From NCBI GenBank assembly GCA_964016885.1, contig OZ024760.1, forward strand, positions 3,720,001 to 3,784,000: a DNA stretch of 64,000 bases, in the 5' to 3' direction. Shown here in pieces: positions 54,978 to 55,156 of this stretch (position 1 is the first letter of the stretch; each line of letters begins with the position of its first letter). Both the position numbers and the translations under genes were made by a program. The stretch is from Eledone cirrhosa. Its lineage: Eukaryota. The notes below the pieces were generated by a model. The model ran no database searches and was not told the DNA's origin. It saw only the letters and a program-made list of their open reading frames with translations.

Positions 54978-55156
54978 AATATGGTTTTATAAATATAGTT
55001 TTCCATTTATTTAATATTGTAAATATACTCCAAATATTTGTCGAGTGCCTTTATATCAGTTATAAATATTTACTAGTTGTAACCCAACAATTTTAAATAT
55101 AACTTTACATGTATCTTGCTCCAATACTGTTGAGCGCTTTATATTATAACTGAAAA

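Follow-up and report, generated by a model that had tools for sequence, protein, structure and literature searches.

A short GCTC-loop-GAGC sequence lies just upstream of the start codon of a Penelope-like element (PLE) at position 55157 of the 64,000-nt stretch of DNA analysed here (the window), which raises the question of whether it is a conserved signal of these elements and which step of their propagation it serves. A first-pass annotation, made from the window alone, had proposed a role either in RT recognition or in the translation of an uncapped, ribozyme-cleaved RNA.

Hydra-clade elements in the window

The window has a GC content of 32%, with abundant (TA)n microsatellites and many PLE fragments. 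A Hydra-clade PLE ORF (55157-57356, +), identified by homology and motifs, encodes an RT plus a C-terminal GIY-YIG domain and is interrupted by a single frameshift near 56010-56029. ATG 55157 and ATG 52186 are both starts of Hydra-clade PLE ORFs, and the ORFs at 55157 (+) and 52186 (-) belong to a common protein family with a 5'-truncated ORF (39633-41148, +) and a fragment (13417-13820). When the C-terminal 437 aa were used as the query, 678 of 4025 candidates were homologues, the best 120 at 35-42% identity.

The Hydra clade is defined by RWK-type, DKT, and CxCX5C motifs (Craig et al. 2021, PMC8557442). In the window elements, the RWK motif replaces GxKF/Y and DKT replaces DKG (both window ORFs have RWR and DKT; the homologue consensus has RMRWK and DKT), the linker reads CNCRDRSKC (CxCX5C), the EN is C-terminal, and the ORF is about 2.2 kb long; hammerheads are predicted in the pLTR (cores at 54920 and 58241), and (TA)n follows position 58347. 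Classification of the host element as Naiad was ruled out because the EN is C-terminal. A Pfam search of pieces of the Hydra ORF gave no match.

The 55157 element is laid out as a 5' pLTR, the frameshifted ORF, and a 3' pLTR (57892-58347, +), followed by (TA)n. The 5' pLTR contains a predicted type I hammerhead, placed by pattern scan at approximately 54913-54976 (+), with the core CUGAUGA at 54920 and GAAA ending at 54961. The 3' pLTR is of the 'short' form, a repeat of 54554-55026 that stops just before the first of the two hairpins described below. In the second Hydra family, the hammerhead-like core is CAGAAGA and not CUGAAGA, both at 52386-52363 (-) and in a copy at 29135-29460.

The AlphaFold model of an intact homologue (pLDDT 93) had telomerase RTs as its best structural matches (Z 16.5, rmsd 4.5, 302 aligned), and these alignments began at residue 1, those with group II intron/DGR RTs at residues 50-56. 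By TERT numbering, we take the extra N-terminal part to be the counterpart of the telomerase RNA-binding domain. The modelled fold is common to the Hydra protein and telomerase RTs, which by itself is no indication of function. Arginines 35, 37, 484, and 486 of the Hydra protein are conserved. Gene callers carried some Hydra ORFs upstream through the motif (P0051, P0083, P0094, P0098, P0109, and P0119), and the resulting N-terminal VEH, VER, or LST peptides are probably artefacts.

Twin hairpins in the window

All five GCTC..GAGC sequences of the first-pass annotation were present (55118-55138, +; 52224-52206, -; 41932-41953, +; 37545-37522, -; 47932-47909, -), and the pattern GCTCYN{4,17}RTHGAG had six matches in the window against 0.52 expected, a number reached in none of 100 shuffles. 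Their placement just before PLE starts held for ATG 55157 and ATG 52186; a further start named at 52189 is ATC, not ATG. The annotation had treated the hairpins as single, and they in fact occur as pairs; it had missed the partners at 55027-55049 (+) and 52314-52266 (-), as well as further sites at 39054 (+), 25900 (+), and 14704 (-).

In the element with ATG 55157, hairpin 2 (55118-55140, +) is formed by GCUC-C / G-[UU]-GAGC and followed by GCUnU, with 21 nt from GAGC to ATG, and hairpin 1 (55027-55051, +) by ACUC-C / G-[UC]-GAGU, with an A-U pair instead of G-C. The MFE fold of hairpin 1 includes a 2-nt bulge, and among its copies the stem is constant and the loop variable. In the second Hydra family (ATG 52186), hairpin 2 is the sequence match upstream of the ORF at 52206-52224 (-), and hairpin 1 (52266-52314, -) has an enlarged AT-rich loop. 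A third family has hairpin 1 at its 'long' (tailed) end (37522-37545, -), downstream of a hammerhead at 37637-37597 (-); its second copy (47909-47932, -) contains a U-G wobble. These two loci share 81% identity over 113 nt and form one family, so they are not independent instances. The copy at 41932-41953 (+), with a GCUC/GAGU wobble, is tail-like and isolated. It had been said to follow a hammerhead remnant; a pattern scan of the window found no hammerhead core upstream of it, and no paired short copy was confirmed.

Three variant hairpins were also found. An A-U pair closes the bulge at 39054-39078 (+); the other two read GUUC-U / A-[UC]-GAAC (36048-36081, -) and UCUC-C / G-[UA]-GAGA (35954-35972, -). 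The latter two were recognised by inspecting the sequence downstream of mapped copy ends and are therefore not independent tests. They belong to the same family as a site at 36013, put forward earlier as a possible covariant form, where a 9-bp stem (35991-36023, -) folds without a bulge and departs from the Y-R rule given below. This stem lies 68 nt after the 36081 hairpin, which is the typical hairpin-2 spacing; there may be three hairpins in this family, as there seem to be in the octopus consensus. Hairpin 1 also occurs at 25900-25926 (+), in a non-coding insert of 220 bp of which one end is short (inverted) and the other long; the sister copy of this insert has a motif match at 14704-14678 (-).

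Conservation across the Hydra clade

A metagenome scan yielded 78 loci from the best 80 of 306 confirmed stretches, several of them drawn from similar marine datasets. The 66 loci with a locatable ATG corresponded to 55 families at 80% nucleotide identity, of which 53 had a leader of at least 70 nt. GCTC(7-29 nt)GAGC occurred within 170 nt before the ATG in 50 of these 53 families, compared with 16 instances in 100,752 nt of ORF (0.027 per 170 nt). As for the three misses, L065 carries a twin UCUC/GAGA variant, L030 is diverged, and the anchor of L034 begins a 2-codon frame. The motif usually occurs in two copies 55-83 nt apart, with the hammerhead on one side and the ATG on the other; the leader runs from the hammerhead through about 42-67 nt to hairpin 1, then 55-83 nt (start to start) to hairpin 2 and 15-52 nt to the ATG. 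The motif is real and clade-wide in Hydra PLEs.

Three of six published Hydra consensus sequences (coral Hydra-2_Amil, sea cucumber Hydra-1_Ajap, and Hydra-2_Ajap) contain the canonical motif; the Hydra-1_Amil consensus stops before it, and the octopus and copepod consensuses carry it in degenerate form. A search of the Craig supplement with three 8-mers gave 16 matches, and in those outside the Hydra file (Naiad and Chlamys included) the GCUC-Y..R-UH-GAGC fold was absent by eye, line breaks being able to hide matches in such a search. The 5' end of Chlamys-9_cRei in the PMC8557442 supplement has a 9-bp inverted repeat with GCTCT and AGAGCACT, without the UH bulge, which is probably a chance likeness. 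In viral contigs, no Hydra relative was found, and a 15-base motif scan returned 120 loci, none with a Hydra ORF or a twin hairpin, consistent with chance.

Within the window, a non-Hydra PLE (33282-34220, hammerhead at 34426) has the same pair of short and long ends and a 56-nt tail without the motif, indicating that the signal is not PLE-wide. The motif is also absent from a 467-nt tandem hammerhead repeat in the window. Compared with these two elements and with the Naiad and Chlamys 8-mer matches, the hairpin signal looks Hydra-specific.

The spacing to the ATG bears on the translation half of the earlier proposal, according to which the hairpins would promote ORF translation from uncapped, hammerhead-cleaved or circular RNA. 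The last hairpin does lie 15-52 nt before the ATG, and upstream AUGs occur in 20 of 23 leaders (31 vs 51 expected), which would impede simple scanning that starts at the cut site. However, the spacing is loose, with the first hairpin 55-83 nt farther away, 7 of 41 leaders contain upstream AUGs in the interval from hairpin 2 to the ATG, and the Kozak context is ordinary (A at -3 in 34/45, G at +4 in 42/45). Copy ends 0-8 nt from both hairpins, described below, would also be left unexplained. We regard translation as a quite improbable main function; it could be a secondary role, e.g., feedback repression by bound RT.

Fold and covariation of the hairpin

The consensus fold is GCUC-Y-(variable stem-loop)-R-[UH bulge]-GAGC-ACUnU. 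The GCTC/GAGC stem described previously is real but too short, as it continues through a Y-R pair across the 2-nt UH bulge. The structure was derived from 80 instances, one per family and position, picked on GCTC and GAGC alone. A MAFFT alignment of 71 hairpins left the 5' arm unregistered, and pairs were counted by script and not with a covariance model. The base after GCTC and the third base before GAGC formed C-G in 54, T-A in 21, and T-G in one of the 80 instances and were unpaired in four (Fisher p 7.6e-18, uncorrected for relatedness), and at least seven changes of this label are needed on a 29-family protein tree. The next inner positions were paired in 50 of 73 instances against 32.0 in shuffles, and those after them in 32 of 44 against 18.3. 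For covariation of the Y-R pair and the next two inner pairs taken together, none of 5000 shuffles reached the observed value. The two bulge bases were TT in 51, TC in 14, TA in 10, and other in five instances. On the 3' side, GAGC is followed by A, C, U, any base, and U, with U at +5 in 70 of 77. Loops range from 4 to 17 nt.

In the window, changes of the outer pairs are compensated: A-U at 55027 and 14704, U-A at 35972, and GUUC/GAAC at 36081. At 39054 the closing pair is reversed to A-U, and the bulge-adjacent G-C and A-U pairs are constant among the window variants. Isolated hairpins fold weakly (z from -2.9 to +1.7 in 13 folds), and the bulge is absent from some MFE folds. Inner-stem G-U pairs outnumbered A-C by just 10 to 5, a ratio that does not establish which strand folds.

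A chance match or an unstructured DNA promoter word could be proposed for so short a sequence with weak single-hairpin folds. That explanation has next to no probability, given its presence in 50 of 53 families against the ORF background with a loop of variable length, and it is already refuted by the covariation and the repeated changes on the tree.

Several known structures were considered. A twister-sister-like ribozyme was ruled out because the motif has a one-sided 2-nt bulge, not a 5+6 nt loop with a CA cleavage site. The hairpin RUH is not a substrate of the element's own hammerhead, as the arms are not complementary to GAGCAC in most families and copies end 5' of GCUC. A splice site was ruled out because the GU..YAG pattern is absent at the motif by eye. 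Rfam at the gathering score gave no match over the hairpins (window positions 47000-58300 and six related loci); the scan returned microsatellite noise only and matched neither a hammerhead nor a hairpin family. In L046 (550-600), stem I of the hammerhead is itself GCUC/GAGC with GUA before GAGC, like the hairpin with a catalytic core inserted; duplication of hammerheads might have given rise to the hairpins.

In secondary structure, the bulge matches the arginine sandwich of TAR and 7SK, a resemblance that we treat as a lead only. The sandwich involves A22, U23, and A27-U38 in TAR and, in 7SK ASM3, a U40U41 bulge with the triple U40:A43-U66 (Pham et al. 2018, PMC6189040). As in those RNAs, a Watson-Crick purine is followed by a bulged U and then by A-U as the second pair, and the 2-nt UU bulge after an A-U pair of 7SK ASM3 is frequent in Hydra hairpin 1. 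The first bulge base was U in 77 and the Y-R positions were paired in 76 of the 80 instances; in this set, the search anchor dictated the first two pairs, but these are also G-C and A-U in the window variants with changed outer pairs. The likeness is one of secondary structure: the Hydra loop closes the opposite side of the helix, and there is no P-TEFb link.

Copy ends and junctions at the hairpins

Ends were mapped at loci with a hammerhead downstream of the ORF. Of 38 such loci, 20 were kept; six without a reference leader, eight at a contig end, three running into a tandem ORF, and one with a (TA)n-only alignment were dropped. Copies ended 0-8 nt 5' of a hairpin at 16 of the 20 junctions and in 14 of 16 families (binomial p 1.4e-13 against a target of 18/190, for rows that are not independent), with the distances for L059, L068, and L074 read from the alignment. 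Eight of the matching ends lie before hairpin 1 (short end) and eight before hairpin 2 (long end). The four off-target ends are those of L005 (12 nt), L023 (27 nt), L049, and L071.

Seven copy/hairpin pairs in the window, chosen by inspection, gave the same picture, with copies ending 5, 2, 3, 1, 5, 4, and 5 nt before 55027, 52314, 37545, 36081, 35972, 39054, and 25900, respectively. Among these are the solo copy at 29135-29460 (before 52314), the short copies near 46460 (before 37545) and at 35608 (before 36081), the inverted copy at 36325 (before 35972), and the inverted short arm at 38750 (before 39054). In the window, four inserts combine a short end with a long one (25780-25985, 14613-14794, 38750-39120, and 36325-35608). 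The Hydra-1_Ajap consensus starts 2 nt before hairpin 1 and has an AT-rich end about 40 nt past the hammerhead; the Hydra-2_Amil and Hydra-2_Ajap consensuses terminate about 25 nt past hairpin 1.

Read depth over 54850-55500, taken from 4 of 18 listed runs and not equivalent to copy number, dropped at both hairpins. In run X1, the summed depth fell from 2.27 million (54982-55003) to 0.42 million (55026-55047) at hairpin 1 and from about 623,000 (55070-55091) to about 8,400 (55114-55135) at hairpin 2. X4 and X16 showed similar steps at both hairpins, and X7 was too sparse at the second. Loose read ends continued into (TA)n, for example at 55106. The 10 nt before the stems are G-poor, and TAT or ATA occurs within -10..-2 in 54 of 73 hairpins compared with 243 of 1158 control windows (21%).

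The optional PLE 'tail' is hairpin 1 plus the spacer, and two alternative copy ends flank it, as is the case for Poseidon. At the other side, 22 loci had no hammerhead match upstream of the ATG; in the five of these with an internal 5' junction and a reference, the junction falls within a hairpin or 11-14 nt ahead of it. Taken together, a twin covarying RNA (or ssDNA) hairpin marks both termini of Hydra PLEs.

Two observations concern individual leaders. In L019, a (TA)n run lies 4 nt before hairpin 2, the position of its terminus, in an otherwise intact leader. Four contigs (L012:1, L032:1, L065:1, and L074:1) start no more than about 7 nt from the site at which the hammerhead is predicted to cleave, and L012 starts a single base past it; these starts hint at cDNAs that run off the ribozyme-cut 5' end and could be assembly breaks.

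Proposed role in the initiation of reverse transcription

The closest experimental precedent is the Poseidon_Ac PLE, whose RT initiates in vitro at two internal sites, one of them at +111-118 (Frangieh et al. 2024, PMC11167929). For Poseidon, RNA is required up to +172, both target strands are extended, the protein is predicted to form a dimer, and the tail is the stretch between the two initiation sites (PMC11167929). The Hydra hairpins lie where a Poseidon-like downstream RNA requirement would lie, which points to RT docking. At a probability of roughly 60%, judged from sequence, we propose that each hairpin is bound by the RT, which begins cDNA synthesis immediately upstream, where an AU-rich patch can pair with nicked (TA)n. 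The RT-recognition half of the first-pass proposal fits this reading, since internal RT initiation would place copy ends where they are observed, 0-8 nt 5' of the hairpins.

Each hairpin on the sense RNA would serve as a docking site for the telomerase-like RT, with cDNA starting a few nucleotides 5' of the stem. The GIY-YIG domain would nick (TA)n, the nicked 3' end would pair over 2-4 nt with the AU-rich patch, and the hairpin-held RT would extend it, leaving the signalling hairpin itself uncopied. A protein dimer could use both hairpins, one per target strand, and thereby produce one short and one long end; two hairpins for two ends, and inserts with a short and a long end, are as expected if two protomers prime two target strands. 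Because the short-ended copy is without a 3' hairpin, a full-length copy would have to be made from a tandem transcript or from one cut by the hammerhead and circularised; such a hammerhead-cut circle has been proposed (PMC4209133). Otherwise, only leader-proximal fragments would be made, which fits their large excess in read depth.

Several points speak against RT docking. Four of the 20 ends are off target, the 5' junctions at hairpins are equally explained by a DNA cut, isolated folds are weak, and the motif is degenerate in the octopus and copepod consensuses. The Poseidon initiation site was also reported to be non-homologous to the cut DNA (PMC11167929), unlike the proposed (TA)n pairing.

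The strongest rival reading is that the hairpins form in sense ssDNA, either the second strand or cDNA made from antisense RNA, and guide a GIY-YIG cut a few bases 5' of the stem. It predicts the same mapping of copy ends and, in addition, the 5' junctions at hairpins. The bacterial GIY-YIG nuclease SsnA recognises a hairpin repeat in ssDNA by both its sequence and its structure and cuts immediately upstream of it (PMC11893778). EN recognition was reported to depend on the Penelope tail (cited in PMC11167929), EN resolution has been invoked to explain the tail (PMC8557442), and an antisense template has been argued for (PMC3846280). However, the only full-length PLE studied in vitro makes its tail ends via RT initiation on sense RNA (PMC11167929), the bulge resembles an RNA protein-binding motif, and the end offsets are scattered over 0-8 nt, though blurred by (TA)n microhomology. 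We consider the ssDNA cut rather unlikely.

Alternatively, the hairpins could direct RNA 3'-end formation just upstream, by termination or by a host or element nuclease, with ordinary TPRT following. The DNA ends would be identical, and Poseidon RNA-seq read ends coincide with the initiation sites (PMC11167929); yet Poseidon initiates internally on uncut RNA in vitro (PMC11167929), and the Hydra fold resembles neither the twister-sister-like internal loop nor any Rfam family, which makes this route improbable.

If RT docking is adopted, the bulge suggests how a hairpin might be read: speculatively, the bulge U could form a U-A-U triple and with it an arginine pocket, to be read by R35/R37 of the RWK helix or by R484/R486. 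More tentatively than for docking itself, we suggest that arginine-sandwich hairpins may each load one protomer of an RT dimer via the TRBD-like RWK helix, both strands of a cut (TA)n target being primed together from two AU-rich alignment patches of a single RNA that is possibly circular. If true, this one dimer-loading rule would explain why the elements have a tail and inverted pLTRs and why solo ends are in excess; it would also supply a minimal and portable RNA signal by which a relative of telomerase could perform target-primed insertion.

Comparison with known systems

In telomerase RNA (template-flanking elements) and in the hepadnavirus epsilon, a structured RNA sets the RT start, and a short patch of the template serves to align the primer in telomerase. 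Those systems use a single site with repeat addition or protein priming, whereas Hydra has two sites and would use target priming. Poseidon_Ac is likewise a PLE with two start sites bounding a tail, a hammerhead upstream, and a requirement for RNA 3' of the start, but it belongs to another clade, its initiation sites fall within the ORF, in an AC-rich stem-loop, and the available text does not define a binding motif (PMC11167929). In stringent LINEs (eel UnaL2, PMC1636434; zebrafish, PMC4176376), a small conserved stem-loop is needed for retrotransposition; it lies inside the copied 3' tail, whereas the Hydra hairpin is 3' of the presumed start, uncopied, and duplicated. A stringent LINE 3' stem-loop was ruled out because Hydra copies end 5' of the hairpin. 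SsnA and its NTS share with Hydra a GIY-YIG nuclease and a sequence-specific hairpin repeat with a cut just upstream (PMC11893778); SsnA is a bacterial stand-alone ssDNA nuclease without an RT, and the likeness is one of arrangement.

The element family, the hammerhead, and internal initiation are already known. In PMC8557442, the Hydra clade is described with RWK-type, DKT, and CxCX5C motifs, a hammerhead, and (TA)n targets, and the consensuses given there carry the hairpins; the words 'hairpin' and 'stem-loop' are absent from its main text, where the tail is ascribed to EN resolution. Term searches of the available text of PMC8557442, bioRxiv 10.64898/2026.07.22.740005, PMC7229834, PMC3846280, and PMC4209133 returned no description of the motif. 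Neither the motif nor its link to the ends was found in literature searches or Rfam, a coverage that leaves aside subscription journals, Repbase Reports, and image-only supplements, and the twin hairpin has apparently not been described before.

PLEs are the closest retrotransposon relatives of telomerase, and one PLE has been reconstituted so far. From a covarying motif of about 25 nt, both ends of the element can be predicted with an accuracy of a few bases in about 50 divergent families, which supplies a rule for annotating Hydra boundaries and non-coding derivatives. Twin hairpins beside the two copy-end points would explain the long-puzzling optional PLE tail, and the motif is a candidate link to telomerase RNA recognition. 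As the signal lies outside the copied region, scarless cargo insertion might be possible if the RT model holds.

Other elements in the window

Further short and long ends of the non-Hydra PLE lie at 39410-39520 (+), 34577-34660 (+), and 36700-36660 (-). The 467-nt tandem hammerhead repeats are retrozyme-like and occur in direct and inverted orientation at 42150-45440 and 59365-59990 (98-99% identical), with a diverged relative near 59.4-60.0 kb. A perfect 188-bp inverted repeat at 58949-59325 (+) has a hammerhead core in each arm (59156 and 59118); both arms stop at the same position, and it is the source of a spurious MIR161 match. Non-LTR element fragments at 28131-29006 (-) and 30560-32206 (-) contain an RT domain and a C-terminal PHD-finger-like match.
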